NCBI RefSeq assembly: GCF_022045235.1
Contig: NW_027266273.1
Location: 18,228,001-18,292,000 of the forward strand
Origin: Haliotis cracherodii
Lineage: Eukaryota
Direction: 5' to 3'
DNA: 64,000 nucleotides
Of the stretch, positions 10,108 through 63,320 are shown in pieces (the first letter of the stretch is position 1; each line of letters opens with the position of its first letter). Position numbers and translations under genes: made by a program. The notes under the pieces are model-generated. The model made no database searches, had not been told where the DNA came from, and saw only the letters and a program-made list of their open reading frames with translations.

Positions 10108-10260
10108 GAGTGAGTTGGATTTTAACAATATTCCATCAATATCACGTCGGGGGACGCCAGAAATGGGTTTCTAACATTATACCCATTACACCCTTATAAT
10201 CGAACACGTGCCTTCAGCATGACTATCGAACGCTTTAACCACTAGGCTACCCCTCCGCTC
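10108..10260 (-). mobile_element. SINE family D (short tRNA SINE), degenerate
   Basis: Reverse complement matches 59840-60035 (GGTAGCCTAGTGGTTAAAGCGTTCG...CCCATTTCTGG). Confidence 0.75.
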
Positions 10261-10364
10261 CAAAACGTGGTAGAGGTAAGAAGAGATAAACAAGGCTTAC
10301 TTTGGACTTAACTTGCGAAAACCCCTCTGGGATTACGAAATTGTAAAGTTTGACATTGTTGCTG

Positions 10365-10801
10365 AGATGGAAAGAGAGAAGGGTCAGGATGTGAGGGAGT
10401 GATGGACGGAGGGTAGACGGACTGGTTGGGAGAGCAATGGAAAATAGAGACGGGGAGAAAGATGAAAAAGGAGGGGCAGAGGGACTGAGTGAGAGAGATG
10501 GCAACAGATGGAAAGAGAGTGAGGCAGACATGACACAAAGGGAGTGCGGGATAGATGGAAGAAAGTAATGGACAGAGAGGGAGGGTGATGGCGGAGTGTG
10601 ATCGAGAAAGAGTGAGGAGAGATTAAAATAACAGATAGAGAGAGTGAGATAGAAAAAAGTGGGTGAGTGAGTGAGAAGAAAGATGGTGAGAGTTTGAAGA
10701 TGGATGGATGGATAGAGTGAGAGAGATGGGAACAATAGAAATAGTGAGTGGGAGAAAGAGTGATTAATCGAGAGAGTGTTCCGGGAGATAGAAGAAAGAG
10801 G

Positions 10802-10847
<46 letters not shown>

Positions 10848-11040
10848 AATGAGATGAGAGTGAGAGAAGCAAAAGATTGATGGAAGAAAGAGGTGGATAG
10901 TGAGTGAGGGATGAAAGGGATGGAAGAAAGAGATAGAGGGAAAGTGGTTGGGATTGAGAGACGGAAGAAAAAGATGGACATGGAGAGAGATAGGGGGTGA
11001 GTGAGAGATATGGAAGAAAGAGATGAGTGGACGAGAGATG
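10365..11040. repeat. Degenerate polypurine/polypyrimidine (GA-rich) tract with a perfect (GA)n core at about 10806-10846
   Basis: Visible composition; lies in intron 2 of lectin copy B. Confidence 0.9.
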
Positions 11041-11086
11041 CACGTTTTGACATTGTATCAGGTAGTATATCACGATTTGCACTTAC

Positions 11087-11257
11087 TGTTTGCAACAATG
11101 GATGCTTGTTTGTTCTTCTTCTCAGACATGATGAAGGCGAGATGCCCCGAGTCATCCACACACAGAGTTCTGGCATCTGGGAAAGGGAGTGTCGAGTTAC
11201 ACAGTCTGAGACACTGGTTTGTGAAACGACAGTAGATGTAGGCGTCGGGACAAGCAC
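11087..11257 (-). CDS. PAN-CTL lectin copy B, exon 2 (N-terminal half of the CTLD)
   Basis: TTCCAG acceptor and GTAAGT donor, 171 nt, phase 1-1; GACPDAYIYCRFTNQCLRL...ARTLCVDDSGHLAFI. Confidence 0.85.
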
Positions 11258-11559
11258 CTGGAATAAGACAAATGGCACTGTCTGACTGTATATTGGTGAA
11301 AGAAAACATATGATTTTGACAATTCTTTCAATGTTTCATTGTCTTATATAAGCGATTCTTTATTTATTAAAGAAATCACTTGACAAATCGTGTTTTAGAC
11401 ACATTAGACACACACTGTAATACGAAAATATGCTTCTGAATGGCATGTTACACTTATTTATAGGCTGGACGAGGGCAATATGATATATGTTGAAGGGCGG
11501 GGATTTAGTTTCATATATATTCAGTACAATGTGTCAAAATTGAAAGCAAATGCCATCTG

Positions 11560-25835: not shown

Positions 25836-26770
25836 GTGAGTGAGAGAGTTGGTTTCAACAGAAGAAGAAACTGCAGCAGAATACGTATAAGTATGAGGTG
25901 AAGATTGAATAGGAACTAATTTTTTTGCTTCCAAAAGAGAGATATTGTTGGTGTACATAATTTTGAGGATTTGCCACTGATGTTCAAATTTTGGGCAGGA
26001 TTTTGATTATGCCAAATGTGGTCCATCACAATTGGATTTTATTTGTGTACTCGGGGCTCTCATGAGCACCACTGCGAAGAATACAGACAGGACTGTGAGT
26101 GCAGGTCTTGGCACCATGGCCAAACTGTTGACATTTAAAACATCGGAATGGGTTAGGTATATATACCTCCACACCGATGTTACAGTACCCTGCTTTAATT
26201 GGTTTGGGGAGAGTAGAGAGTCTGAAAGTAAACAGGTAGGTATTTGTTTTGATAATATTGTTGTCTTGTTTTCAACGCCTTGATTTGTTAATGCTGCTGT
26301 AATATCTCCTTCTGTCATGTCAGACAGACGCTTTGCTCGATCTCGAACAAATCCTCGACAGGGGTTCAGAGATTTGTGCACTGAAACAACAACCTTGGTG
26401 TTGCACATTCCACAAGAAGTGAACCATTTTCTAACTTCTCCCCATGCACTCTGAATGCCCTTGGAGACAGCAAAAGGATTGAGTTTGAGAAGGTTTCTAT
26501 CAGTAGATGAGATAACTATGAACCTAGGCCAAGAATTAGCAACATCTGGAGAGACATGTTCATCAGACGACAAAGAGTCCACATGACGACGTATATTTGT
26601 TTTCAGTGAACAGAAGTTTGGTTTTGAGACATAGTGTGTTAATAGAATTCGAGGTCACTGAGCGAAATTTCAACGTTTTCATCGACGGCATTGCCAGGTG
26701 ATGCCATGGCGAACACTAGTAACATATCAAAACCTATACAGATACGGTGTTCGTCTGCAAGTCAACTCTC
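25836..26770 (-). mobile_element. I/Nimb-clade LINE remnant: 5'UTR and ORF1 (gag-like, zinc knuckle) joined to an (ACTC)n tail
   Basis: WPRFIVIS...LNPFAVSKGI, HKSLN.CRG, YIPNPFRCFKCQQFGH in shifted frames. Confidence 0.75.
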
Positions 26771-27044: not shown

Positions 27045-27420
27045 GGGTGGTCCAATCGTCTATGAGACCGACCAATCGATTTTATCTAAACAAATACTTT
27101 GCCTCAGATATATCTTGAAAAAAATAATTATGCTTCAGACTGTTAAAAAATACAGAAATCGTCTGCCAAATAAATTACACTGTGGCAAGGTGTCTCACAA
27201 ATATTCGCAGAGTTGCATCCCCTTGGCACGCCAGAAACATCGCGCATGCTCATGTTTCTAGGTTTTTAAGCAACATGTGCGTGCTCGTGGGTTTCACCAA
27301 GGAGGGAAAGGTCTGAGACTTGCATCACTTGGGGCTTTCCTCCCACTTTAAGCTGACACACCTTGATATTACTGGAATACTATTCAAAATGGCGTTAAAC
27401 CCCACTCACTCACTCAATCA
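27045..27420 (+). mobile_element. SINE family C interrupted by a ~135-bp insertion
   Basis: Head at 27045-27067; body resumes at about 27200; tail GGCGTTAAACCCCACTCACTC. Confidence 0.75.
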
Positions 27421-27956
27421 TTCATACCAGTCTAGCCAATTATGAGAAGAGTCAGTGCATGAATGCCAGTTTTGGACCAGTTGATGGCCACCTGCGCAAT
27501 GGTCGCACTGGCACGGTTTAGTTGCTGCTTAATCTGACCACATCATGCAGACTTTGAGTAGACCAATAAGTAGACTGTTCGGTACATCACAGTTCACAAC
27601 CGAAAATGTGTTTATTACATGGGTCATTTTTTTTATTTCAGGCAGCCAGGTGACCTTGAATTATGACCATGCAGAGATTTTCTGAGGTATCGTATCATAA
27701 TGCCTTTCGATTTTCTGTATATAGCTACACGTACCTGTTGAAATCGTGATGCTCTTATTAACGTTATGAACTGACATATCATTTCGCTCTTGGGAGAGGA
27801 CCCTGGGATCGATAATTAATTAAGTTCTCCAGATGTTTCACTTTGTACATATAAATACATCAACTCAGGAGGTTCTCCACACTGAAGACCTATATTTCAG
27901 TTATATTGTGACACGTAAAAATCAGATTTAATTATTTTAGTTATGGTGGTATTTAG

Positions 27957-29140
27957 ACAAGTTCCTGAATGTATTATTCTTTTAATGCATTTAATGTATT
28001 GCATAAATAGCATAGATTTTTACAATTTAGCTTTTGAAGATCCATTCCACGGAACGGATAACCAGGCGTTTGTTAGGTATTTAGAATTTATTCTTAAGTG
28101 AAAATACTGTAAATTCACATCGCCACAGAGGTTAATGTTGTACGAGATCTCATTTACCGTTTCTGATTGTCGTGCTAACAAGGTCGCAAAAGGTTTAGTA
28201 ATCCTTAGTTGGTGTGTAATCTATCTGTAACTTGTAACTTTGTGTATGCTTGACAGTAATGCATGGGCTACATGTAGGTTATCGCTCTAACATCACATAA
28301 AGTCACATACATCACACTAAGTCACATACATCACACTAAGTCACGTATATCACATTACGTCACATTCATCACATTTAGTCACACAAAGCCACATTAAGTC
28401 ACACTAAGTCACATACATCACACTAAGTCACGTATATCACATTACGTCACATTCATCACATTTAGTCACACAAAGCCACATTAAGTCAAACTAAGTCACG
28501 TACATCACATTACGTCACATTCATCACATTTAGTCACACAGAGTAACATTAAGTCATTCTAAGTCACATTTAGTCATATAAAAACATAAAGTCATATACA
28601 TCACATATACAAATTAAGTCAGATTAAGTCACATTAAGCCAAATCCAGTACAATTAGGTCACAAACAGCACACAAAGTCACATACAGCACTTTTAGTCAC
28701 ACTCAGTCACATTAAGTCACCTTAAGTCACACAAGTTCCTGAATGTATTATTCTTTTAATGCATTTAATGTATTGCATAAATAGCATAGATTTTTACAAT
28801 TTAGCTTTTGAAGATCCATTCCACGGAACGGATAACCAGGCGTTTGTTAGGTATTTAGAATTTATTCTTAAGTGAAAATACTGTAAATTCACATCGCCAC
28901 AGAGGTTAATGTTGTACGAGATCTCATTTACCGTTTCTGATTGTCGTGCTAACAAGGTCGCAAAAGGTTTAGTAATCCTTAGTTGGTGTGTAATCTATCT
29001 GTAACTTGTAACTTTGTGTATGCTTGACAGTAATGCATGGGCTACATGTAGGTTATCGCTCTAACATCACATAAAGTCACATACATCACACTAAGTCACG
29101 TATATCCCATTACGTCACATACATCACATTAAGTCACATT
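27957..29140. repeat. Direct duplication (offset 774 bp) interleaved with an AGTCAC(A/T) minisatellite
   Basis: 27957-28324 is reiterated at 28731-29098 with no mismatch seen; the TAAGTCACA array spans about 28290-28730. Confidence 0.92.
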
Positions 29141-30889
29141 GATGTTGACTTGTTGTTTACTGTTATTTTAGCCAGCATTGCTTCGAATTCCATATATATA
29201 GATATATCATATCTGTGAAGCAGTACAGAGCGAGTATCGGATGTTTTTTTTCTTCTCATCCACCTTGGACACAGATACTCAATGACGTGATTTGTGGAAT
29301 TTTGTTGCAAGATCCACCGGCGAAACAATGCATGGGACGTCAGCCTGCCAACGGGGTTGCTGGGGTCATTGAGTATGCATAAGCTGCTCTCAGTGATCTA
29401 TCATCTCCTCGCGCAATGTCGTTGAATAAGCCAATTGATGTTGAGAGTTTTCAATGTTTGTTAGTGTAACTTAAGCACGCGCTTTGGTATTACACAATGT
29501 GTAATACAGCTGTATGTTTATTAAACAGGTGATCACTTCACGGGCATGTAATAAATTTGATTTTACTTTATTTAAGTTGTAATAACAGTAATAATTCTTG
29601 GATTTACGACAATTCTTTTGAATAAAAGATTATATATGAATTCAAATTTGTGTTGTATATTTTAATAATGCAAATTAATTTATGTAAAGTACGGCAGACC
29701 CTCTTTTCTGATAATTTTGCCATCACAGTATTCCCTTTTCTGGAATATGGATCCGTGCTCATTCTATCTTGGATCCTGTCAATAGTTTCTCCTGCTATCA
29801 CATACCTAAATACTGGCAGTTACATGAAGTCCAATATTCTGGAAGTGTGAATTTAGAAATTTAGAATTCCAAACTAAGTGACCTTGGCAAACAGATTAGG
29901 ATAAACCTTATATCATTAACTAATAATTTCATTAAATTCTGAGTTAATTTAGGATGGCATAGATATGTTAAAACTTTTGCAGAGAGAAAGCTTACAGACA
30001 TTTGCTGCAGATTTGGGGCGGAGCAGTTCTAGATCTATCCCTGTTGACCAAAGGTTCCAGACGCCCAAATGAAATATATGTTACGAATCATTTATCATAT
30101 AATAAAATATGTAGCAGTGAGGGGAAAGATCTACTGCTTTGATTTTATCAACTATTCTTTTTTTTTTAATTCATTAAAAAGACCCACTGACTCTATGCCT
30201 TTCAGGTTATATTGGTTTTACTTTGAGCACCAGATGTACAACATGGGCAATGTGACTGTTGACAATCTATTTATAGATATCCACATGATTTGCAACTTGT
30301 GCTTATGGTTTTCACACAATTACGATGGAAAGTAAGTTTCCCCGCCCTCGGATTGTTGAGTAGTAGTGTTGAATTCCCTTTTGTGTTTTCAGTTGGTGAA
30401 ACAAGTTAAAAGGTAACAATGGGTATTCTTTTGGAAACTGTTTATCCCCACTGCACGGCAGAATTGTTTTACACAGATCAGTAAACTCATGTATGTTAGA
30501 AAGTGTGTTTTTATTAAAGGTCTCTTTGAATTTTTCAAACGAAAGAAAAAGTCCAGTTTGATCTGTTTGGCCATTGATAGTTTACCGCTTTTTCTTTCCA
30601 ATACTTATACAAGATATATTTATTATCTATTTGATTGTTATCGTTTTACCAAATTCCCTGTGAAAGAATACCAAAATCGCAATTTTCTTTCACTTTCATG
30701 GGTTTCTTAAAAAAATATTTGCGGGCATTTTATGCCTCCATTTTTATTTTTACATACAATTAAACTTCATTTATTTCATCTGGTTTATTTCCCCAAATGA
30801 ACTTGAAGTATCGCTTTTGAAACTGAACTATAACACAGTCAGGTGGGTATTGCTGAAAACAATTGATTGAGTTCTGGTAGAATGAAAGA

Positions 30890-33800
30890 TTTTAATATTT
30901 TCCTTTGCTCAAAACTTAATTCAACTAATATGTAGCGTTATAAAAATATTTCGCCTAAGGGTGAGAATATTTTCTTCAGCTCAAAACTCATGTTTTTCTT
31001 TTGCAAAAAAATAAAGGTGTGTGCATCATGACACAATTGATCTAATTTGTGGCGTTATTGAAATATTAAGCCCAAAGGCGAGAATATTTTTCTTTGCTTA
31101 AATCTCATGTTTTTCTTTTACAAATACATAAAGGTCCGCTACAAGCATCATGACACATGATTCAACTAATTTTAAGTTAATTCAACTAATTTGTGGCGTT
31201 ATTGAAATAGTACGCCCATGTTTTGGTCGAGGCCACAGAACGAATGAACCCGGCCTGCCGCATCTTTGGTCTTGTGTATTGTAGTAAAATTTTAACGGCC
31301 TACGCTTTCAGTTAATTTTACGTACCATATACCTTCCATTGATCACACTGGGTAATTAAGTGACACTGGGTGTGCAATATATAGGTACACATGTGCGTAT
31401 TTTAAAGTAAAAGACCGATTCGTTTTTCATTGCATAACGTCTGGCTGAATATCTCACATTCTAACGAAATCTCGAAATAATTACTAGTATTTCTTATATG
31501 GGGTATCGAACTGACCAATGGGAAATATGTTTGAAGCCGATGGAGGAAAACTTGAGTGAATATTGTGACACGAAAGCAACTTTTAAATGCATTGCCACTT
31601 TTGGTATTAATAAGAGAAACAGTCCATAAAAAACAACAGCCTTCTTATGTTAATTCCAATATTCTCACTAGTACGTTGCATCTAATTACAGCGTCGGCCT
31701 TATTTACAGATAAGTCCACAATACACCACGTGTGAATAAACAGCTATGCGGGTGGTGGTGTGGGCAAATACCTAGCCTGTACATATATTTTTGTAGATAC
31801 ATGTATTACATATTTTCGTTAATTGTGGATATATTAAGCACAAAGAAACAAAATGTTTATGAAAGATGCCTTGATAAATTCAACAAGAACGAATCTTGTA
31901 TTTTCTCCGCGATCTTGAAGTGTATCATCGTTTAATGGGTAATTCAATAAAAGTAAAACCGGTAGTATGTAGTTAATTGAACCAGACTACACAAAAAATC
32001 CGGTATAAAAAATTGGATATATGTTATTGGAAAATGTTGGTGGCCTGATATTCGACAAAGGGTGCGTCAAAACGCAGCCATTGTCGATTTGCCATGCTTT
32101 GAACAGCATTGTTTTCACACTTGTTCACAAATGTCAGTAAAGCAAAATGCACATGCAAGTTTTGGCATTCGTAAGTCTTGGTAGTGGCTATAAAAAGGCA
32201 AGCATAAGCCAATAATATGTCGCTCAATTGTCAATATTTTTCAAGTTCGAAAATGCCGAAACTCAGCGCTGCCTATCAGAATATCGCAATAGGACGTATC
32301 CAAAGAGGGGAATTCGAATCTTCTGTTGCACGCCTCTTCAACGTCCACCACAGCACCAGTTGCCGCCTTTAGGTACATACAGTTCAATTCTACTGCAGAC
32401 CGTCCGAGAACCGGCCAAACAAGAGTTCAGTCGACTGTTCCACCTACGTCACCGTAATGCCACAGCTACGGAGACCGCAGGACGCATCCCTGATTTGAGG
32501 AGGATATCAGACCAGACTGTCAGGAACCATCTTCGCGAGGCTGGAATCCGACCCAGAAGACCAGTTATCGTCCCTGTTTGGCAACAGATCCATCGACATC
32601 GACACTTGCGTTGGTTCCATACCTTACAACCTTGGAATTTGAGAAACAGGAGACTAGTGTGGTTTATCGATGAATCACGATTTCTTCTTCACCGGCGAGA
32701 TGCGTTTTGCCTTACATTGTGTACGTGAATTTGACAATTTCGGTGGCGGTACTATCATGGTGAACGGGGCCATATCCTACACCACGAGATCTGACTTGGT
32801 TGTGGTTCAAGGAAATTTGCAGCAAATCGCGACATGAATCAAATTCTTCAACCTCACCTTCGCCAATTATTGACCGCCAGATGAAGCTGTTTCAACAGAA
32901 CAACGCTCCACCGCATACAGCTCGTGTCAAGGTAGCCTACCTCCACAATGCCGACATCAACGGCTTGCCCTGGCCGTCGAGATCTCCAGATCTCAACCCA
33001 ATCGAACACCTCTGGGATGAACGCTCTCAGAAGACGCCGCAGACACCCCTACAACTGACCAACACGTTACAAGCAAAATGGCGCAGAATTCCGCAGGACA
33101 GAATTCGTACACTTATCCAGTCAGCGCCGAGCAGATGCAGAGCCGGGTCTGACACCGGGGCGGTCGCACGAGATACTGAGTTCAGCGTAACCTTGTGGCC
33201 TTATGTGACATGACGATGAATAGTTTTCAATGCCTTTGTACACCGACAACATGTGACTATCGAGCACCAAAATTGCATATTTGTATCTTTTATATTAAAT
33301 TAAATATATCGACTTTATTAGGTACAATGAATTTACTGAACATCTACCTATGCGTTTCTATTTTTTTAAACTGTGTATGTTTGGAGGCGATATCAAAGGA
33401 GCCGCCCAACAGACAGTTTTGTCCGCTTCACGTGAGCTATCATCCCACTCTCTTGCTTTCGTGTCACAATATTCACTCAAATTTTCCTCAGTCGGCTTCA
33501 AAAATATTTCCCATTGGTCAATTCGACACCTCATATAAGAAATCATTATTTCGAGATTTCATTAGAATGTGAGATATTCAGCCAGACGTTGTGAAATGAA
33601 AGACGAATCGGTTTCTTTCTTTAAAATACGCGCATGTGTACCTGTATATCGCATACCATAATTAATTAATCACTGAATTACCCAGTGTGATCAATGGAAG
33701 GTACATGGAACGTAAAATCCACTTAAACCAAACCAAAGATGCTGCAGACCGGGTTCTTCCGTTCTGCGGCCTCGTCTTTGTATGTCATAAACAATGTAAC

Positions 33801-34410
33801 GAATAGAAATGTAACAACGAGACATAAAATAGGAAATGAACCAAGTAAACTTAAATGTTGTGGATGATAATGCCAATGAATTGGAGTACACTCGCATGAA
33901 TTCGGATGATAAACTATAAATATATGTTTTGAGGTGAGGCTGGGTTCATAAAAGATCGTGACGATATGTACAAAAGGTAAAACTTTTTAAATAGTAATGT
34001 AATGACATAATTGAAAGTATGTTTCACATGATACAATATACTTTGCACACAAGTAGTTAATGTTTCAAAGAGACCGACCACAACATGGGCGAAATAGTTT
34101 AATAACGCCACAAAATAGTTGAATTACGTGAAAATTAGTTGAATCATGTGTCATGATGCTTGTAGACATACCTTGATGAATTTGCAAATGAAAAACATGA
34201 GTTTTGAGCAAAGGAAAATATTCTCGCCCATTGGCCAATCCTTTTCACCCATGGGCGAAATATTTTGACAACGCCACAAATTAGTTGAATTAAGTTAAAA
34301 TGAGTTGAATCATGTGTCATGATGCTTGTAGACACAACTTTATGCATTTGCAAAAGAAAAAACATGGGTTTTGAGCAAAGGTAACTATTCTCGTCCATGG
34401 GCCACATAAT
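30890..34410. mobile_element. Foldback-like element with long inverted arms built from sub-repeats
   Basis: 31230-31580 is inverted at 33450-33775, and 30890-31230 is inverted at 34070-34410. Sub-repeats include TTCAACTAATTTGTGGCGTT and GCATCATGACACA. Confidence 0.8.
31940..33377 (+). mobile_element. Degenerate Tc1 transposon (transposase pseudogene 32253-33179)
   Basis: MPKLS..., TVRNHLREAG, WFIDESRF, QQNNAPPH...WPSRSPDLNPIEHLWDE, GRTRY*; right TIR TGCGTTTC(T)n..GTGTA. Confidence 0.9.
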
Positions 34411-34664
34411 TTAAATTTTGAGTTTTCGAAAGATTTTGTTTTACATTTTTTATTCCCTTTTCTTTAATGTACCCATGGGAAGAGCATGTTCAGTGTTCGA
34501 AGTACCTTTGGCAGAGACTGGCCACAGCATGGAGAGTTTCTGGACAAATGGGTTTCCAAAATTTAAATGGGTCGTGTTATATTCTTTTTGCATGTAAAGA
34601 ATATAACGTTTTAGGGGCAAATGATATTTTGTGCATCGATCTACATAATTGGGATACAATAACA

Positions 34665-34765
34665 TTCATCAACCAGGTCAGCAATCTTGACTAACCGATC
34701 TCGTTGGTCGGCTCTTACGACTAGCATCGGATGCTGAAGACCAATTCTAAATCGGATCTTCACGA
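34665..34765 (-). mobile_element. SINE family A 5' fragment
   Basis: Reverse complement of CGTGAAGATCCG...GTCGTAAGAG...GCTGAC. Confidence 0.7.
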
Positions 34766-35100
34766 TTTTTGAACATAAGTACTGAGGTTCACTGTAGTTT
34801 CTGTAGACCTAAGGAAAAAGAAATTGTGCAGTACAGTTACATTGGCAGTCACTTTTTATTCAAACGTGAACAATATTAGATTGGAATTCTTTTTTGATAC
34901 TTGGAAACATTCCATTAAATATTCTGGGTTTAGCTTGGGTGTCTTGTTAAAGACAAGATATGTTTTCGATCATTGCTTCAAAACAGCCGATATTGTTCTG
35001 TGAAAGGAAACGAAAAATAAGAAAAGCCTTGGAATAGCGAGAAAATATTCCGTTAAGCAAACTATCCGCCGAGTCAATTTGTACCAACCAATGAGTACCA

Positions 35101-35294
35101 TACACTCTTCAAAAAAAGAAACGCACAGGTAGATTATTAGTAAATTCATTGTACCTAATAAAGTCGATATATTTGATTTAATATCATACATACAAATATG
35201 AAATTTTGGAGCTCGATTTATATACCGGATGTTTTGCGTCGTCAGGTTCAATGAACAACATACTATCTGTGCGTTTCTTTTTTTGAAAAGTGTA
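35101..35294. mobile_element. MITE derived from the 31940-33377 Tc1 family (both ends, internal deletion)
   Basis: TACACTCTTCAAAAAAAGAAACGCACAG ... CTGTGCGTTTCTTTTTTTGAAAAGTGTA; subterminal sequences match both ends of the Tc1. Confidence 0.88.
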
Positions 35295-36057
35295 AATAAT
35301 ACAATTATGCGTGATGCCCGGACAATGCTGATACTATCAATCATTCGATGGATATCAGGCCATATAGCTTTACGGTGTTAAGAAAACAACTACTCTACTG
35401 AGATTAGACAAACATGATTTCACGCCATATTAACTTTGAAAAATAAATTGAAATAACATTGGAAAAAGAAAAGTGAGCCTCGGGTTTTATAAGAACAAAT
35501 GTTCACTGGGCATGATGGATGTAGTAAAGAATGAGCTGTGAAAACAATACACACAATTATCATCTGTAACGTATTCTTTGTAATACATAAATGTGAATAT
35601 GAAAACATGATTTTGCCAAGATAGATCAAAGTAATACTATAACATCTTTTACATACATGTTTCCCCTGTGAAAAAAATGAAAACACATCTTTTACAGCTG
35701 GCATTTATTTTTGTGATTTACAATTACATTTCATGATTTGATAGGCAACACATACTTGAGTTCGCTATCATCACATAAGAACAATCTAATCAACGCCCTG
35801 CTCATACTGATTTATTGATGTGTCACACATTCAGCGAATGAAGCACACAAGATAATTACTGAAGTTGATTTTTCATATAATTTCGTACTTGGCTATTGTA
35901 ACATTAATATTAATCTATGCATTTGATTTGTATAATATCATGAGGTAAGGTATTTAGTGAAATAAACTAAGGGTGAAGTTCGTGCCACCAATCCTTTCTT
36001 AAAACAATGTGTATGACTTAACACAGTCACATCAATTTAATTCTGTTGAATACCATC

Positions 36058-37347
36058 TTATAAGGTGCCTCCACACACTAGTTTGCTCATGTCAAGCACC
36101 ATATCCGTCAGCATGCGTGGGGGTACGTGCACAGAGGTAGCAAACTTGTTGTTACTATACCAACTGCTGTATAGTTTACCACCCCAAACAGCCAACTGTT
36201 TCATGTGACTATTTCTGTGTTGTTTATACTTGTGAGGGAAGAGTTCAATCAACCCTGTTCCAGGAACCTGGAACAACGTGAGTGCTAACCCCGCACCGTG
36301 TACACCGATCAAAATATCCGTTTCCGTGATCAGTTGTATTTGTTCTCTGATGGTCAAAGTCTCCAACGCTACGGCTTGTACAGGAGTTTCAGGAAATGTG
36401 TTTTTCAGCGCCTGAATGAGTTCATCAGAATTATTAAACTGTCTCTCTATTATGCCCCTGACGTTTCGTGGATGGGCTATGTAGTTTTTTCTCAACACAA
36501 CAGTTATCCTAATCCTGTCACAAGCTAGTTTCCTGCCCAGAAAGCCTCCTGCACGATCAGAGACATCATAACGGAAATCGTCGATGTAAGGAATAGATTT
36601 GGCTTTGCGCAAAATGGGCACCCGTTTCAACCCGGGAACAAGGACAAACTGCTCCAGGAGCGTTGTTTTCTTCAACCATCCCACTCTGACGACCTTCTTG
36701 AACAGCAGTTCCCACAATCCGTCTAGGGCAGTAGCTGGATGGGCGTCAAGGATGAGAATTGTGGTCTCGGCAGCAGTTCTGTTCATTTCCCGGGTATTCA
36801 GATATGCGTTGTACAACTCTATCACGGTCCAGTACATATTTGCATAGTCGATACGAACAATTCCAACAGTTAGTCCCTCTAAACTCTCCATATATTCCAT
36901 CTCTGTTTTATTGGACACTGTGATTACGTTTGTCACATCATTCACAGATGCCTGATGAGGACGGTTTTCCATGTGTCTCATCAGATCAGGCGTTCCTCTG
37001 CATAGTGTTCTCAAAACGCCAAGTTCAAAGTTTAAAAATTCCGTACTTTCATCTTGATATTCAACTTCAGTGATGTTCTCGCCTCCTCTTCTGGTTCCAA
37101 AAGCTCTGGAAGGATCTAAAACCATGTCCTCTAACTTCATACCACCAGACGGCAAATGCCCAATGCTCTTTGAACATTCTCGTTCATGCCCATTTCTGTT
37201 CAACAACAATCGTTTAGTGCCAAAGAAAACCCGGCTTCCTGCGTTTGTTATTGCTACGAGGAGATAGGATAGCGCAATGATATAAATGATGATTTTCAAT
37301 CGCGACCTTAGTTTTCTTGTACGCCTGAATGACATATTATAATACAT
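36058..37347 (-). CDS. GT61 glycosyltransferase, plant beta-1,2-xylosyltransferase (XYLT)-like, copy 1; type II membrane protein
   Basis: 429-aa uninterrupted ORF with a basic tail and TM segment (IIIYIIALSYLLVAI). Motifs RGGE, DYANMYW, LDAH, RKNYIAHPR, IREQIQLI, LIGVHGAGL, IEL. Confidence 0.9.
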   Translation of the reverse strand: MYYNMSFRRTRKLRSRLKIIIYIIALSYLLVAITNAGSRVFFGTKRLLLNRNGHERECSKSIGHLPSGGMKLEDMVLDPSRAFGTRRGGENITEVEYQDESTEFLNFELGVLRTLCRGTPDLMRHMENRPHQASVNDVTNVITVSNKTEMEYMESLEGLTVGIVRIDYANMYWTVIELYNAYLNTREMNRTAAETTILILDAHPATALDGLWELLFKKVVRVGWLKKTTLLEQFVLVPGLKRVPILRKAKSIPYIDDFRYDVSDRAGGFLGRKLACDRIRITVVLRKNYIAHPRNVRGIIERQFNNSDELIQALKNTFPETPVQAVALETLTIREQIQLITETDILIGVHGAGLALTLFQVPGTGLIELFPHKYKQHRNSHMKQLAVWGGKLYSSWYSNNKFATSVHVPPRMLTDMVLDMSKLVCGGTL

Positions 37348-38011
37348 ATCAGCTATATTTTAAACAAAAAACGCCAATAACGGATTGCGTCCTAAAAAGT
37401 ACTCTTAACCAGCTTGAAACAGATTAAGATTTAAATAATCATTTTCTAATGTCTACAATGATTGCTGATTAAACATATACATGTACATGATGATGATTAA
37501 TGTCGTATGATTTTTAGTTGAGTACCTGTGAGTATACTTTCGAAACCAACCACTACTCAATAACAAATAATATCACACGTAGGTTGTTGTTGATGAGCGA
37601 CGTGAAACGTGAATGCAACTGCAAGTTTTGTTCACAAATCTAGAACTTCGACACAGTACAAAAGGACGTTAAGTGTGTTCCCTCACATGAGATCTGTATC
37701 AACATTTGTGATGAGAGTGAAGGTGCAGCAAATTCAGGGCCTTTGTTCTCTGTAACAAATTTCACAAATCTGTTTAGAAAGAAAGGAGGTTATCCTAATT
37801 TATTCAAACAATTATTTTGCAGTTATATCAGCATCAGTTTGGTCTATACTGGTGTACTATTTCGCATACTGAGATAACATCAAATGACAAATCATGGTTA
37901 TCGGTCCTTCACCTCGATCTGAGTTTAATGAAAATTTTGTACCTGTTTTTACAATTTCTGCCCAATCGAACTAAATGTAAATGATGCACATGGAAATTAT
38001 TCAAGCACCCC

Positions 38012-38014
<3 letters not shown>

Positions 38015-38088
<74 letters not shown>
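38015..38088. repeat. (TG)n microsatellite
   Basis: Directly visible. Confidence 0.98.
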
Positions 38089-38089
<1 letters not shown>

Positions 38090-41000
38090 TTTGTCAAATT
38101 GCTTTAAATATGAACATTGTTAAGGTAACATACAGCTACACATTATGCTACATATTACTAATACCGTTTTGTGATGCTGTAGTTTGGAACGACAATTGGA
38201 CGTCCCCAAATGAAACGATGCGTGTTTGAGCATCGCTGGCGACACATATTTACGGACAATTTGTTGAAAACATTCACCTGAATATTTGAAACATTGGTTC
38301 AAGGTAATGTATAATTGACAAACAACTGCCCATTCCTGAAGAATAATGGAGCGTTTAAACAATAAGACGACGTCGCAGGTGTGTGTTAATTTCATTGCGC
38401 GAATAGCAGTTTCTACAGTGTTGTATTTGAGTCAAAATGGGAACCATAATAACGACGGATCTGGGAAGTTGTAAGATCGGGTATAAATGACCATTGTTAT
38501 GCGAAAACGCTCATTGTAATCTCATAAAGACAAATGAAATTCCTTGAACTCAGCAGCGAGTGTAACCGCCACGTGTTATTGACGGGCGGTTGCTTAATTA
38601 ATTTCTAAATGGATACAAATTTGAAACGTGTTTAATTGTTTTGCTTTGCTCCATGGTTATAAGAATTTAGATACTGAATATTACAGCCGAAATTATAGCA
38701 TACGTTGGGTGACTTGGATACCAAATTTACCAATGAAATCCTCCGGAATAACATATTTAAAGATTAACGTTCGGTGTTTTACAATGAATGTAGACGCCTC
38801 TTGCAAAATGTCTATGGAAAATTGAGTTTTAAAATCTATTTGATATATCAACTCACCTTTTGTATTTCAACATATACAATGCAGATTTAGTCGTCTGACA
38901 TAACACCTCTTCATTGTCCCTTTTACCATCATGCGTAAACGTACATGTCTTTCTTTACAGATCAACCAATGTTTAAAACGCGTGGTGTGAACCACTGTCA
39001 TGATAAAAGGCTGATCAATGAATAATTATGCATTTATACATAAAAGGACAACACATACCTGTAAAATGTAAAAATGATAACACAGTGGACAGAATGGCAG
39101 AGGTAGATTGCGACGACTGTTCTCGGCTGCTGTTAAATGCGTCGACACATGCGGAACCGCGACATATGGTGTCATCCGTAGCTGTACATCATGGTTGTTC
39201 AGTATTTCGTTTCAGCAAAAGATCAATACTACATATACATGCGATATCACTGTATGATAATTATCTTTATATTGTCTGAGCTCTTTTAACCAGGATAGAT
39301 ATTTTTACAGCGTTACCTCTGATTATATTTCTGTATTTGTAGGATTGTACTACGACGTGTCTTGATGGAAGTATTACAGTGCATATTTTTCATTATACTT
39401 TTTTATATGTTTCACAAAATAACTTAACCTGGGAAATTTGACCATCATCTAAAACTGTAAATAAAATCAACACTTGTTAGGCAATACGGAAACTGTTCTG
39501 TTACCACCTGTTTGTGTAGTCAACTTTGATAGCATATGGCAGATAACATAGACGGAAATTACAACATCAAAGTAATTGTTAATGTGATACGAGTAGAGTT
39601 GTTGGGGTATATAACTCCTTGGGTGTTGGCCCTCGGCACACTTGCTTGAATGAACTCAAAAAACCTCACAGCTCTCTCCTCTCTTGTTTAGGCAAGAAAA
39701 TATTTAAATATTCCTATTTTATGACTAAAGTTCTCATTTCATTGATATTATTATCTGGAAAATGTTAGAGTTGAATCAGTACTGCCGTATTGTAACGCTC
39801 AGTCTACTATGTACACGTTCTAAATGACTGCCCATTATATATTATTTATCGTTTAACACTCAGACACTGTCCAGTGAAGTGTAATGCGTCGTGGGCTCCT
39901 CCAGTTTATGTGTCATTAATACGCGACAACAATAGTTCCCTCCTGTATTTCGACATCCATGATTAAATACCCCATCAATGTATATCATCATCTGTTCAAC
40001 GTGGCAGTTGCATATACAATCTATAGTTTCGTGTAGTAGCGTAACGAACATGTAGCTTAGTCACAAAACGGTTCCTATACTATATGATATATGTATGTGT
40101 GTTTGAATCATGGGTAATTAGTTGTTTTATATTGGTCACATTTATTTTTACCAGCATTGTTTCGAATTCTACATTTTCCATCAGTTGCGTGATCTTTTAG
40201 CACAGCAGATTTACCACTCAGCATATGGCAATGATGTTTTGCGGTAAAGCATCGATAGTTATGTACTCTGACTATGGAATATATGTATTTTATGAAAACA
40301 AAACAAATCCAGATTAATATAAAAGCAAAACTCTGACCCGTGAAGATCCGGGTACGAATTGGTCAAATGTCATGAACTTATATTCTCCCAAATAACATCG
40401 AGTTGATTTAAATAATGCAAAAAAGTCTTAATCAACGATATATCGATTGAGTTATAAGTGATGACCTTTATATATTTTAGGGGATCGATTTGTCGGAACT
40501 ATCAGAAGACACAAACAAATACCCACTTAAACACTTTATAGTTACAATATACATAACTTGTTCAACAAGCTTGGCAGTTGACCAATTCTGTCAAAATAAA
40601 GACAACATATTCTGTGCTATATCTGTGTTATGTATATGAAAAACAAGACAAATATGCAATAATGTACTCACTACACGGGAAAATGTTTTTTTTATTTTGG
40701 TGAGCATACATGAAAGCAATTACATCTTCTGCATATGTATCATGTTAAACAATAAATGAAATCGTATCGTCTGATGTTAGTGTTTAGTTTTGCAATATAT
40801 CATTACACTTCCTTGTGAACAACCTACACCTTTGGAGAGTACTGATTAACTATCACACTTCCAATCAATGCAGCACACAGAACACACATGTCGATGTTGA
40901 CCGACCTATTTGTTTCTTTAATTTCACGTCTGTTGAGATTTATTGCTCTCTAGAACATTTATTTTTCGTACAGTTATTTTAACTGGTAGATTATTTTCGA

Positions 41001-41112
41001 ATGTAGCGAATGAGCAAAATATTGACTGGGGTGATGTTCATACCAGTAAACCTGTATAGAAAATAAACTGTGCGACACAAAGGGAACATCACAGCTTTGA
41101 TTCTTTCAAATA

Positions 41113-42396
41113 TCATATGTAATAGAGTTTTTCACAGATTCTTAACCCCATGCCAAACACCATATCCGTCAAGACTCGTGGGGGTACGTGCACAGAGGTG
41201 GTAAACTTTTTGTTGCTATACCAACTACTGTATAGTTTACCACCCCAAACAGCCAACTGTTCCATGTGACTATTTCTGTGTTGTTTATACTTGTGAGGGA
41301 AGAGTTCAATTAACCCTGTTCCAGGAACCTGGAACAACGTGAGTGCTAACCCTGCACCGTGTACACCGATCAAAATATCCGTTTCCGTGATCAGTTGTAT
41401 TTGTTCTCTGATGGTCAAAGTCTCCAACGCTACGGCTTGTACAGGAGTTTCAGGAAATGTGTTTTTCAGCGCCTGAATGAGTTCATCAGAATTATTAAAC
41501 TGTCTCTCTATTATGCCCCTGACGTTTCGTGGATGGGCTATGTAGTTTTTTCTCAACACAACAGTTATCCTAATCCTGTCACAAGCTAGTTTCCTGCCCA
41601 GAAAGCCTCCTGCACGATCAGAGACATCATAACGGAAATCGTCGATGTAAGGAATAGATTTGGCTTTGCGCAAAATGGGCACCCGTTTCAACTCGGGAAC
41701 AAGGACAAACTGCTCAAGGAGCGTTGTTTTCTTCAACCATCCCACTCTGGCGACCTTCTTGAACAGCAGTTCCCACAATCCGTCTAGGGCAGTAGCTGGA
41801 TGGGCGTCAAGGATGAGAATGGTGGTCTCGGCAGCAGTTCTGTTCATTTCCCGGGTATTCAGATATGCGTTGTACAGCTCTATCACGGTCCAGTACATAT
41901 TTGCATAGTCGATACGAACAATTCCAACAGTTAGTCCCTCTAAACTCTCCATATATTCCATCTCTGTTTTATTGGACACTGTGATTACGTTTGTCACATC
42001 ATTCACAGATGCCTGATGAGGACGGTTTTCCAAGTGTCTCATCAGACCAGGCGTTCCTCTGCATAGTGTTCTCAAAACGCCAAGTTCAAAATTGAAAAAT
42101 TCCGTACTTTCATCTTGATATTCAACTTCAGTGATGTTCTCGCCTCCTCTTCTTGTTCCAAAAGCTCTGGAAGGATCTAAAACCATGTCCTCTAACTTCA
42201 TACCACCAGATGGCAAATACCCCATGATCTTTGAACATGCTCGTTCATGCCCATTTCTGTTCAACAACAATCGTTTAGTGCCAAAGAAAACCCGGCTTCC
42301 TGCGTTTGTTATTGCTTCGAGGAGATAGGATATCGCAATGATATAAATGATGATATCCAACGGCGACCGAAGTCTGGGTAACTGGAATGTTAACAT
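41113..42396 (-). CDS. GT61 glycosyltransferase, XYLT-like, copy 2
   Basis: The ORF track starts at TTG 42405; the first ATG is 42396 (427 aa). The core is almost identical to copy 1 at an offset of 5061 bp. Confidence 0.9.
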   Translation of the reverse strand: MLTFQLPRLRSPLDIIIYIIAISYLLEAITNAGSRVFFGTKRLLLNRNGHERACSKIMGYLPSGGMKLEDMVLDPSRAFGTRRGGENITEVEYQDESTEFFNFELGVLRTLCRGTPGLMRHLENRPHQASVNDVTNVITVSNKTEMEYMESLEGLTVGIVRIDYANMYWTVIELYNAYLNTREMNRTAAETTILILDAHPATALDGLWELLFKKVARVGWLKKTTLLEQFVLVPELKRVPILRKAKSIPYIDDFRYDVSDRAGGFLGRKLACDRIRITVVLRKNYIAHPRNVRGIIERQFNNSDELIQALKNTFPETPVQAVALETLTIREQIQLITETDILIGVHGAGLALTLFQVPGTGLIELFPHKYKQHRNSHMEQLAVWGGKLYSSWYSNKKFTTSVHVPPRVLTDMVFGMGLRICEKLYYI

Positions 42397-44239
42397 ATTT
42401 ATCAACTGTATTGAACTGAAACGCCACTAACTGATTGTCTACTAAACTCTAGCCTTACCGAGTTTGAAATAGATTGTTCATGACAGATAATACTATTCTG
42501 TGTATAGCTATTGTAACTGAAATGAAGATATTGTGAAGGCGATCAGTAAAATATTGATAACACTGCATGTCAGTATGCTGAAGACGTATGGATGTGTTGT
42601 ATACAAGGGTTTGGTAAGCCTGTTCCTTTCCCGACAGGAGGCACGTAACCACGTTTGTGAGAGGAGGTGTCGATTTAACTTGGGAGACTCTCTTTTCTGT
42701 AAAAAAAACATAATCCAATAGTCCTATTAGTTCCTAGTTTTATTCAAATAATTAAAATACATTAGATGACTAATTATCATATGACATTACGTTGTGGTGA
42801 TGAATCAGAAAAGCTTCTGATGACCCCTTTATCTAGATATTACATTTTCTGCCCAAGATGATAGAATACTCTCTATTAATGACACTCAATGTAAACGATT
42901 ATGCAATATATCCAAATCTGAAACTTGTTATTATTTTATGGTTCTTTGCTCAATGGTTAATTGTCCTGGGATTAGATAGGGCAATCCACTATTGTCATCC
43001 AATATACAGTATATATCCGGTGCTATATAACGTTTACATGGAGTTCCACATCAACTGGCATTTACGTTTTTAATGAAAATTGTTTGAGTTGTACAGCAGG
43101 ACATGTTTAGCCTTTTTGAGAAAAAACCTGTTGCCTTCACTGAATCAGCGATCCTTTGATTCATTTTTTAACTATTTCATCTGTTATTCCCCTAGGAATC
43201 TGCTTCAGGAAACATTCGAGACTCGTTATTCTCTGGCGTTCACTCAAAACTACAGGCTATATAAACTAACTTTCTTTGTATTTGGGCACAGACATGGTCA
43301 TCTAAGATAAATCCTCTTGAATGACTCCTCATACCATTGTAAGTAAAGGAAAGAGGAGCGATTTGTACATAAATGGAAAAATCTTACCTGTTATCTGTAA
43401 ACTGTGAAGTGAAAACACACGAACGGAAGAGGAAATCGTCATATTTTGGTGAGACAATTGTTCCCTATACAACGGTAGAGGGTTAAAACTGATACGTTCG
43501 CAACCACGAAATATGTTGTCATCTGCAGCTGTGCCCAATGGCTGATAAAATATTGTTTTAACATTGTACAGATTGTTCTAGCCTTGATGGAGCAAACGAA
43601 ATATGTGCTGACATACTTATTTTAATGTATTAATGTACGTTCTGATATGTTTGTGTGTCAATGGTTAGATTTATTTGAGGTACATGTGATCGGTGACGTG
43701 GGATGCGTTTGTTGCTGGAATGACACATGTGTACAGTCGGAATTGAACAATGAACTCTGCATACAGTCGAGAATTCTTATGATTATAGGAATGTTCTGTC
43801 GTTTATATGAAGAAATTGTATATTTTTGAACAAGTTATGTTCTCATTTGGGTTTTAATGTTTATAGATTATATTAGTACGATACATTCATTGTATCATTG
43901 TACGATACATGGTACATTTCCTAGCGTGTATATGTAGGGTTGATGATAGGTGGTAAAAGTGCATGTTTCCTTCAAACAAACAGGCAAACTTTAAAAAGAT
44001 TACAGGGGCAGTACCAGGTTATGGTATATATATATAATCAACAATTGATCAATCAGCTACAATCTGTTGAGGTAAGAACAATGTCACATGAACATTTGAT
44101 AGCTTTGGACCTAAGACTGAACAGGAGAAGTAGAATAATGTTAATAATGTTAACATGTGGGGAATACATTTGAACCGAACGGGGAGTGATCTGAGCCTTG
44201 AGTGAGTGTTCTGGCCTCGGTGTCCCCGTGCTTTAACTA

Positions 44240-45785
44240 TACTACTCAAAATTTGATAAGGATCACTAGGTGATATGTGTGTAAGTTACCACAAACATAA
44301 CAAAAGACATGACTCTGACTCAGAAACGTGTTTAATCATGTTATGAATGAAAATTCATGAGCGGCATGAACTTGTATCAATATGGAATGTTTGAAATCTG
44401 CAAACACCAAAAGGCATTTCATTAAAAAATGTTAACAGCAAACAAGAGAAAGAATTACATAGTTATGAGGGATAGTCCATCATTACACTTAGTCGATGAA
44501 GTGTCAATATCGAGTATGACCTCCCCTTGCATCAATGACGGCCTGACAACGTCGAGATATGCTGTCAATAGGCACCCGGATGTTCCCAATGGGAAGGTTG
44601 TTCCACTCTTCCACGAGGGCATGTCCGAGCTCTGCCAAAGTCGTGGGTTGTGCTCTACGGCGTGAAAGGGCAACCTGCAGCATGTTCCAGACATGTTCAA
44701 TCGGGTTCAAGTCCGGCGAGCGCGCTGGCCAATCCATGCGGACAATTGTCTCCTGCTCAAGGTACTGCTCAACCACCCTGGCGCGATGAGGACGGGCGTT
44801 ATCATCCATCAGGATGACCTCAGGGCCAACAGCCCCAGCATAGGGTCTGACGTACACATCGAGGATCTCATCCCGGTACCTCACCCCCGTCATTGTTCCT
44901 CTCTCCAGGACATGAAGATCTGTCCTTCCATCTCTGTTGATTCCACCCCAGACCATGATGGAACCACCACCATAACGGTCATGTTCACTGATGTTGGCAT
45001 CATGGAAATGTTCACGTTGTCGTCGCCACACCCGCTGCCTCCTGCCTGGACTCATCGGTGAACAGAACTGGAACCCAATCGTTCCGTGTCCAAGTGACAT
45101 GATCTTCAGCCCGTTCCAATCGCTCCCGCCGGTGTCGAACAGTCAGGGGGATTCAGACACATGCCCTTCTCGAGTAGAGACCTGCATTGTGAAGACGATT
45201 CCGTATCGTCTGAGTGGACACATTCACCCCCGAGGCGTTCAGGAGGTCGTTACGTAGGCTGGTTGCTGTCCAGAAGGGATGACATCGTGCCTGAAGAGCC
45301 ACAAAATGATCTTGGCGTTGGGTTGTCGACCTCTGACGACCACCCCCATGTCGGTGTGCTGCTGTACCAAAATTTTGCTGTCGGGACCAGGCCCTGCTTA
45401 CAACGCTCTGGCTGACGTTTAGTGCATTGGCGACGTCGCGTTGAGAATAGCCAGCATCAAGCATTCCAATACATCTGCCCAGTTGTTCTGTCGTCAGGCG
45501 ACGCCTTACACGTTGAGGGGGCATTGCGTAGATAAACGTAGTGTAAACACTCATTTGAGTTTACAGTTTCAGAATGAATCAGACACCGTTGCCTGATTGG
45601 AAATCGTGCAATGGTAGCAAAAGCATGAACTGTTATGTGAAACGCATTTCCCATGGCATGAAATGCACGTGCACGTGTGTTGGAGACGTTTTTGATTTCA
45701 CCTGAACACAATATTGCCAGTTATGCAGTTATTTTGTTTTTTATTAAGAAACATATATACGATCCTTATCAAATTTTGAGTAGTA
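44240..45785 (-). mobile_element. Full-length Tc1 (DD34E) transposon with an inactivated transposase (45524 to 44504)
   Basis: Perfect 25-bp TIR TACTACTCAAAATTTGATAAGGATC with TA on both sides. LFTDES, MDDNARPH...SPDLNPIE (34-residue spacing), GGHTRY*. One TGA at 45153-45155 and a frameshift after DES. Confidence 0.96.
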
Positions 45786-61818: not shown

Positions 61819-63320
61819 TTTATTCGGTATTTTAGGCCACATGGCCATTGTACAGTTGACATTTTCAGTTTCATTTGTTTAGTCACGTGATATACATGAT
61901 ATATAAAAACTATCTGACAAAGAATATATGTTTCAACAATATGGCTAATAACCGTATAACAGCAGAGTTCTTGGATTCTATAAGACTGGTCATTAACATC
62001 TTGTTTTTGTGCCTATTGTTAAACTTCGGAATATACTTTTCTCTAAGATGTTCATACTTATCACATACTAATAAAACATGAAATTCATCCTCACAGATAC
62101 CCATTTCAACGTCCCTTTTTCACATCTACGTCTAAAATTTACACAATTTACTAAATTGTGTAATGACACTCTGAATTTACATAATTCCCTAACAAGCGAT
62201 TTATCATCTAACATACATATATACTTCCCTGGTTCTATAGCAGACTTGATATCCTTGTAATTGCTCAGGAATCGAGAAGAAGATAGTATTATACTGTCAT
62301 GCCAGTTTTGACTATACATATCCTGTAACCTTTGTTTAAAAGAGTATAAGAACCAATTTGTAACCCCTACATCTTGGGATAGCCACATGAAAATAATAAA
62401 TATGACATTGGACACCCAATTCGTTTTGCCTTTGTCATCAAGAGCTTTCAGTAGTTTAAAATATTGGTAATGATATCTTTGCGGCTCCATCCTCAGTAAT
62501 GTTAACCAATATTTTGTCATTCGAAGTTGAAGTCGAAGTCCTGTTTCACCTAAAATAGCATATTTTCCAGCCATTACAAAGCGCTTAAAGTAGGAAGCAT
62601 GTACTTTTTCAATAGCGTCATTATATTTATATAGCAAGATTGGCGCGATTTTGCCGTCAAATATAGTACACGCTGTAGAAAAGGATACATGTATATTTTG
62701 CTTGAAAAAGGTATAGATAGGTTAATTGTTTTTGATGCTTGCGATGCTAAATGTTTGCACGCAACTGACCATGATAGTATAGATGATTGCGTCAGGCTAA
62801 ATATTTATAGTATGTAACAATTTTTAAGGCGATAATACTATATGTCCATTTTTCATTTTTGGCAATGATACCTCCATTTCTAAAAGCAATTACATTTGTT
62901 TTTGACAAATTAACTTCCAATCCCATCTACTGCAAAAAGAATGTAATACATTCAATTGTTTCTGTAGACCATTAACAGAGTATGAAAACATTTGTAATAT
63001 CATCAGCAAATAGAAGTAACATTAAATCTCTAATATCTTGTGTGACAAACACACCATGATGACATTCGTTATATATTTCTGTCACGAGCTCATTAATGAA
63101 AACAATGAATAAAACTGGACTTAATATACATCCCTGGCGTACACCACTAGATGTTAAGAAGCACTGTGTCCTACCAGATTGTCTTTACCGATGAATATAT
63201 ATATTTTTTAGAACTAGAAACAATTTCCCATCAGATCATTTGGTAAGAAGAAATATAAAAAAAATTCTCTATCCACATAATCGAAAGCTTTTTTTAAATC
63301 TAAAAATGCACAAAAAACGG
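61784..63320 (-). mobile_element. LINE RT/3' fragment (L2/Crack/Daphne-like) with a (TATG)n tail
   Basis: KAFDYVDR, GVRQGCILSP.LF, LLLFADD, LEVNLSKT, DEFHVLLVC; AATAAA followed by the (TATG)n tail at 61784-61824. Confidence 0.88.

Follow-up and report, generated by a model that had tools for sequence, protein, structure and literature searches.

Core beta-1,2-xylose on the glycoproteins of snails and flukes is an epitope in immunity and allergy, and the passages of the reviews drawn on here treat the animal gene behind it as uncharacterised. A 2019 review describes xylosyltransferase activity in extracts, with genes characterised just for core fucosylation (PMC6935376), and the relevant portion of a 2021 review on molluscs cites activity in Lymnaea only (PMC8699351). 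Candidate core beta-1,2-xylosyltransferases (XylTs) have been named for Schistosoma, in a paper that also mentions mollusc sequences so annotated (PMC4122909), and for the fish blood fluke Cardicola (PMC9565688), and many microalgae have putative XylTs of GT61 (PMC12507850). The parts consulted of four further papers (PMC10295696, PMC8724618, PMC13172533, PMC12909830) held nothing further on an animal XylT gene. Within GT61, a motif NxxHxxxD has been defined, the His of which is H397 in sorghum XAT (bioRxiv 10.1101/2025.07.18.665579). Replacing this His kills POMGNT2 activity (H166A; PMC8360118) and much reduces that of EOGT (H248A; PMC13123520), and the EOGT paper calls the residue invariant in GT61, its animal coverage, in the part drawn on, being just EOGT and POMGNT2. 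Here we describe two GT61 genes, copy 1 and copy 2, in which Trp takes the place of this His. They lie in a 64,000-nucleotide stretch of the abalone Haliotis cracherodii (contig NW_027266273.1, positions 18,228,001 to 18,292,000), hereafter the window, in which a first-pass annotation had seen candidate molluscan core XylTs; its remark that the animal gene is poorly characterised is borne out by the 2019 and 2021 reviews.

Both copies are encoded on the minus strand of the window. Copy 1 occupies an open reading frame (ORF) running from stop to stop at 36058-37359, with a Met-started coding region of 429 aa at 36058..37347, and its tandem paralog, copy 2, an ORF at 41113-42426, with a coding region of 427 aa at 41113..42396. 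The two proteins are 94% identical (390/414 aligned residues). They score 52.6 and 52.8 bits against Pfam PF04577 (cut-off 27), and all of the motifs that the first-pass annotation quoted are present, in order, in both. An AlphaFold model of the window protein (pLDDT 78.8, pTM 0.78, from an 11-row alignment) had POMGNT2 as its top structural match (Foldseek E 6e-14; VIA Z 25.4, root-mean-square deviation 3.2, 319 aligned, 17% identity), the next family reaching Z 11.3, and the window proteins are accordingly modelled with a GT-B fold like that of POMGNT2. Each protein also has one hydrophobic N-terminal stretch (residues 19-37 in copy 1, mean Kyte-Doolittle 2.1), predicted to be the anchor of a type II membrane protein; in copy 2 the predicted anchor contains a Glu. 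By alignment, the Asn-Arg-Arg triad through which GT61 enzymes hold uridine diphosphate (UDP) is present as N170, R286 and R302 (copy 1 numbering), copy 1 also retains Q336 and H350, and the HGA motif of the C-terminal lobe is present as H350-G-A-G. Both ORFs are real, constrained GT61 genes.

The motif NxxHxxxD, on the other hand, is not matched, and both copies read NxxWxxxE (NMYWTVIE). The TGG codon for Trp173 of copy 1 (36829..36831, minus) and that for Trp169 of copy 2 (41890..41892, minus) align at the place of EOGT H248, POMGNT2 H166 and sorghum XAT H397. The register of the alignment is seen in another abalone protein (P0017), whose NLYH aligns both on EOGT NMYH (N245/H248) and on NMYW of the window proteins. 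As aligned, the window genes have lost the proposed catalytic base, with Trp for His and Glu for Asp. Nor is the exchange confined to the window. Among 302 aligned homologs, a set tilted to Trp by the use of a Trp-type profile in the search and exclusive of 20 later-fetched cluster members, the site held His in 225, Trp in 51 and another letter or a gap in 26. No description of a Trp-type GT61 was found in the literature searched, which left most subscription journals outside. Animal XylT homologs as such were known already, many being so named by NCBI; what is new is a widespread animal XylT-like subfamily that lacks the proposed catalytic His. Some of its members are labelled in databases as xylosyltransferases or EOGT.

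The window genes belong, by the residues compared, with the core XylT-like proteins and not with EOGT or POMGNT2, because their UDP-binding arginines are spaced as in plant core XylTs. The triad was defined in the EOGT structure paper, the figure labels of which give an arginine spacing of 5 for EOGT, 4 for POMGNT2 and xylan enzymes (XAT, XYXT), and 16 for plant core XylTs (Arabidopsis R394/R410, rice R398/R414 and four more in Fig. S8; PMC13123520), the plant numbers having been taken from labels in a machine-read PDF layout. R286 and R302 of the window are likewise 16 apart, as are their counterparts in 221/225 His rows and 50/51 Trp rows. A profile of the window's kin gave E 5e-18 for EOGT and E 1e-11 for POMGNT2, and E < 1e-67 for XylT-like proteins, which made up all of the best 150 of 9,833 matches. 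The first-pass annotation had likened the genes to plant XylT by a series of ordered motifs, among them a YxAHPR block not known from EOGT or POMGNT2; spacing and profile scores agree with this placement, and the YxAHPR insertion is therefore a genuine feature by which the XylT clade can be told. No plant-named XylT appeared in the homolog searches, in the profile search (best 150 of 9,833) or in the metagenome scan (80 of 127 loci), and the weakest metagenome matches inspected resembled rotifer rows. In an Atlas listing, which serves as a lead only, a Streptophyta-dominated GT61 cluster ranked second for the window protein and first for a His-type paralog on contig C56.

Named Trp-type records came from abalones, scallops, Mercenaria, Ruditapes, Mytilus, Sepia, the nemertean Tubulanus, the brachiopod Lingula, the urchin Strongylocentrotus and the coral Stylophora (names were sought for 30 proteins, and 13 clusters had one). 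In a FastTree phylogeny of the 302 rows, 50/51 Trp rows fell outside a 236-row His group (support 95), in three groups and with 3 His/Trp changes needed. A mixture-model tree was built from 33 chosen rows with eight motif columns removed, the outgroup consisting of diatom and unnamed non-animal-like His-type rows. In this tree 13/15 Trp rows formed one clade (94/82), two clam-like rows standing apart, and the clade divided in two, with molluscs, the abalone genes included, on one branch (100/96) and nemertean, brachiopod, urchin and coral rows on the other (98/93). A single origin of all 15 Trp rows was not rejected by the approximately unbiased (AU) test (p-AU 0.34), and an earlier mixture tree, from a quick search with the motif columns left in, had given one Trp clade at 94. 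His is likely the ancestral state, since the diatom and rotifer relatives retain it. The Trp-type subfamily is old, and its swap long predates the duplications in the window.

Two further kinds of homolog were seen among the rows. Seven proteins (P0182, P0184, P0252, P0256, P0276, P0280 and P0281) form an unnamed XylT-like clade that reads NLHN, with His one place earlier and Asn at the usual site, i.e., what may be another rebuilt active site. Six long unnamed proteins of 809-1823 aa (P0143, P0144, P0146, P0149, P0154 and P0220) have an XylT-like domain of the His type, which lies in the C-terminal half wherever its position is given.

The abalone genome holds seven intact XylT-like frames: copies 1 and 2, two Trp-type genes on contig C1, a degenerate one on C9, and His-type genes on C56 (L005, C56:31848451-31849884, minus) and C12 (L006, C12:7756304-7757731, plus). 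Intact, non-degenerate Trp-type genes number 4 vs 2 of the His type. The two His-type proteins, each of 478 aa and with the full NxxHxxxD motif (NLYHTMTD), are 88% identical, and their ratio of non-synonymous to synonymous substitution rates (dN/dS) of 0.20 indicates stronger constraint than in the Trp type. Copy 1 shares 34% identity with the C56 protein (116/346). In the mixture-model tree the C56/C12 pair grouped with Biomphalaria and Littorina genes (96/96), and the AU test rejected a tree in which two Trp-type abalone rows were joined with the C56 row (p-AU 7e-5). The predicted model of the His-type protein reached pLDDT 89.2, and NCBI has already given the name 'beta-1,2-xylosyltransferase RCN11-like' to the H. 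rufescens ortholog of C56/C12. The first-pass proposal that the two window genes are the core XylT candidates does not survive this comparison: these are the wrong candidates because the proposed catalytic His is absent, with Trp173 in its place, while C56 and C12 retain NxxHxxxD and group with snail genes, which makes the latter pair the likelier core beta-1,2-xylosyltransferases and, with the two kinds of animal homolog now sorted, the first choice for a core XylT assay. Even so, the His type is unproven in this role, because no xylose was found in a Crassostrea virginica glycome although this oyster has a His-type gene. The remaining paralog (L007, C9:24399285-24400364, minus) is an intact frame of 429 aa that has lost the His, both UDP arginines and HGAG, which reads HGHD. 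It sits on a long branch, which only FastTree put into the Trp clade of molluscs, and is likely a true pseudoenzyme, judging from the residues lost.

Residue conservation was compared in a set from which rows > 70% alike had been removed, leaving 39 Trp-type and 180 His-type proteins. The donor side is kept in the Trp type (N170 97%, R286 100%, R302 97%, Q336 100%, H350 100%, E368 100%), and D201 and H381 are both at 100%. Positions that are fixed in the 180 His-type proteins and loose in the Trp type, i.e., 176 and 180, which adjoin the motif, 240-241, 356, 382 and 389, lie mostly near the acceptor side. Residue 382 is Met in the window proteins and in 64% of Trp rows, and Phe in 98% of His rows; the Phe/Tyr determinant known from xylan enzymes was tried as a guide to the donor and dropped, as a spacing-only mapping to residue 382 is too loose. 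Compared with the two C1 genes over residues 156-429, copy 1 gave a dN/dS of 0.28 (C1a, p 4e-5) and of 0.30 (C1b, p 1e-12). The catalytic region of the abalone Trp-type copies is under purifying selection.

The reading to which we lean, with slightly more doubt than belief, is that the Trp-type window proteins are Golgi UDP-sugar transferases whose acceptor site has been remodelled and whose acceptor is not the core mannose of N-glycans. UDP-xylose or another UDP-sugar would be bound through N170, R286, R302, Q336 and H350, and Trp173 would stack on the acceptor rather than take its proton. Either His350 of HGAG or the UDP phosphate could take the proton, or no base would be needed if the acceptor were acidic enough. 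Phosphate-assisted GT-B enzymes exist. We hold a broader proposal more loosely still, as a possibility that we would on the whole doubt: a GT61 subfamily predating the coral/bilaterian split would have swapped its catalytic His for Trp, would still transfer sugar by means of the second His, with phosphate assistance or base-free, and would build a marine-invertebrate glycan not yet tied to a gene, its His-type sisters being the animal core xylosyltransferases. The HGA-motif His had itself been proposed as the base in human POMGNT2 (bioRxiv 10.1101/2025.07.18.665579). The Trp type amounts to a natural experiment on the dispute over which His is the GT61 base.

Several points weigh against an old and still active transferase. 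To our knowledge, no known glycan fits as the Trp-type product. The position of Trp173 in the cleft is given by alignment rather than by model coordinates, and dN/dS between copy 1 and copy 2 is 0.67, not significantly < 1 (p 0.14). Support for the main Trp clade lies just under the star mark of the tool and its branches are long. Although it holds coral and urchin rows, this clade is nested among His-type rows of lophotrochozoans, and the root may therefore be misplaced or the rows drawn together by long-branch attraction. The Trp swap may have arisen more than once, since FastTree required more than a single change, and no cnidarian or deuterostome His-type gene was identified among the homologs gathered. 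Lastly, the POMGNT2 and EOGT mutants described above are dead and much reduced, respectively, despite their HGA His, which therefore provides no rescue in those enzymes, and this favours a pseudoenzyme.

Such a pseudoenzyme would bind UDP-sugar or glycan without transfer, and would regulate, chaperone or partner an active enzyme of the Golgi. We regard this as unlikely, albeit as the most serious of the competing explanations. The donor-binding residues are near-completely conserved across coral, urchin and molluscs, the site is fixed as Trp rather than drifting, which fits a working active site, and the Trp type has been duplicated repeatedly in abalone (the four intact genes vs two of the His type). 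Yet the swapped His is essential in POMGNT2 (PMC8360118), is important in EOGT and is termed invariant in the family (PMC13123520), the partner Asp has changed too (among the 51 Trp rows, 21 have Glu and 29 have Asp), and the C9 paralog, without both arginines and HGAG, shows that the lineage yields degenerate copies. Modelling of a Trp/His heterodimer without alignments gave scores of 0.08 and 0.00 vs a mark of 0.34, which speak neither for nor against such a pairing. Either catalysis has been solved anew in the Trp type, or the type is a pseudo-glycosyltransferase of great age.

It is improbable that the window genes are working N-glycan core beta-1,2-xylosyltransferases that use another base. 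They do have the 16-residue arginine spacing and the predicted type II anchor, NCBI auto-names some Trp-type proteins xylosyltransferase-like, and core xylose has been reported on one hemocyanin glycan of Haliotis tuberculata (PMC7690630); elsewhere, mollusc core xylose is described as limited to Heterobranchia (PMC9300197). The loss of the catalytic His and the altered acceptor-side residues speak against such a role, as do the two more constrained His-type genes (dN/dS 0.20), which group with snail orthologs and whose union with the window genes is rejected (p-AU 7e-5). In addition, the consulted parts of the reviews (e.g., PMC9300197, PMC6935376, PMC8724618, PMC9565688) place animal core xylose in gastropods and flukes, not in the corals or urchins that bear the Trp type. 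The least probable reading is that the window copies, whatever the subfamily does, are recent redundant duplicates heading to decay. This might be suspected from their location in a 13-kb segmental and a 1.3-kb local duplication, the dN/dS of 0.67 between them, the charged residue in the anchor of copy 2 and a broken copy on C1. Against it stand two unbroken frames, constraint between copy 1 and C1a (dN/dS 0.47, p 8e-4), an H. rufescens database protein that is 95% identical, matches to both copies among the contigs of putative RNA runs, and a Trp swap far older than the window duplications.

The transcript evidence consists of contigs of four such putative RNA runs from three organisms, and shows presence only. 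One spliced contig, ~95% like copy 1, covers 36158-37755 and jumps to 39070, where the window letters form a GT..AG intron of 1,309 nt. Copy 1 therefore likely carries an intron in its 5' untranslated region (UTR), at 37750..39058 on the minus strand (GTATGT...TTACAG; contig joint 37755/39070). The coding exon would include 402 nt of 5' UTR with six upstream ATGs (37348..37749, minus), over which the contig is unbroken, and the intron would be preceded by a non-coding exon (at least 39059..39111, minus), represented by the 42 letters that the contig has on the shorter arm of its joint. A short first coding exon near 37705, hinted at by the N-terminus of database protein P0004, was dropped, the contig being unspliced through there. 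Copy 2 was matched by shorter pieces from two other runs, with 0/203 and 4/392 letters differing. The first-pass description of the coding regions as intronless is thus right for the coding part, which is a single open frame in each copy, and incomplete for the copy 1 gene with its 5' UTR intron.

Two of the origins that the first-pass annotation raised for these intronless frames fared less well. Horizontal transfer specific to molluscs is a misfit because records of the family extend to coral, sea urchin, brachiopod, nemertean, annelid and rotifer, and retroposition is unneeded because the 5' UTR intron exists and single-frame coding is common to both His-type genes and the POMGNT2-like gene. 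The more recent history is one of duplication. Copy 1 lies in a 13-kb segment (27336..39997, no strand assigned) duplicated from or to contig C1 (68,446,125-68,458,809) at 87-94% identity in pieces, and copy 2 shares just 1.3 kb with copy 1. The closest database matches are Haliotis proteins (95% and 87%), the former from H. rufescens. The Trp-type cluster on C1 (L003, L004, L008 and L009; C1:68454632-68469724) comprises two intact genes with a broken partial copy between them on the other strand, and frames beside the broken copy look like an endonuclease of a long interspersed nuclear element. Because four Trp-type proteins of H. asinina, and likewise two of H. rubra, apparently share a contig, the arrangement suggests one ancestral Trp-type cluster with later duplication to the window site.

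Elsewhere in the window, Tc1/mariner transposase remnants, each split over > 1 frame, were seen at 44504-45560 (minus; Pfam DDE_3 at 44504-45142) and at 32216-33213 (plus; weak HTH_Tnp_Tc3_2 at 32216-32728). Two frames of ~215 codons at 26007-26654 and 62068-62721, both on the minus strand and without a Pfam match, look like decayed retroelement pieces. The stretch at 10247-11335 is CT-rich and of low complexity, with strong skew, long spurious frames and no Pfam match.

Set beside the described enzymes, the window proteins have POMGNT2 as the top structural match to their predicted model, whereas POMGNT2 has arginines 4 apart, retains His166 and has a C-terminal fibronectin III domain that is absent from the window proteins; abalone also has a separate POMGNT2-like gene (L010, C2:10018230-10018541, minus), a single 613-codon frame with an NIMH motif and a C-terminal extension. 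EOGT is of the same GT-B fold family, and its N245, R372, R377, Q412 and H432 have counterparts in the window proteins; in contrast, its arginines are 5 apart, His248 is present in an NMYHH motif, and it is an enzyme of the endoplasmic reticulum with an HDEL that is missing from the window proteins. The plant core XylTs (Arabidopsis XYLT, rice RCN11; CAZy GT61 clade C), compared by published residue labels, are closer, with PF04577, the N-R-R triad, the 16-residue arginine spacing and a predicted type II layout in common, and the window proteins differ from them in Trp for His and Glu for Asp in NxxHxxxD. The His-type animal XylT-like proteins, i.e., those of abalone contigs C56 and C12, of Biomphalaria, Lymnaea and Aplysia, and the Schistosoma and Cardicola candidates in print, share with the window genes their clade, spacing, donor-side residues and single-frame coding, but form a separate lineage in which NxxHxxxD is kept and the acceptor-side surface is conserved; their annotation as xylosyltransferases derives from similarity.

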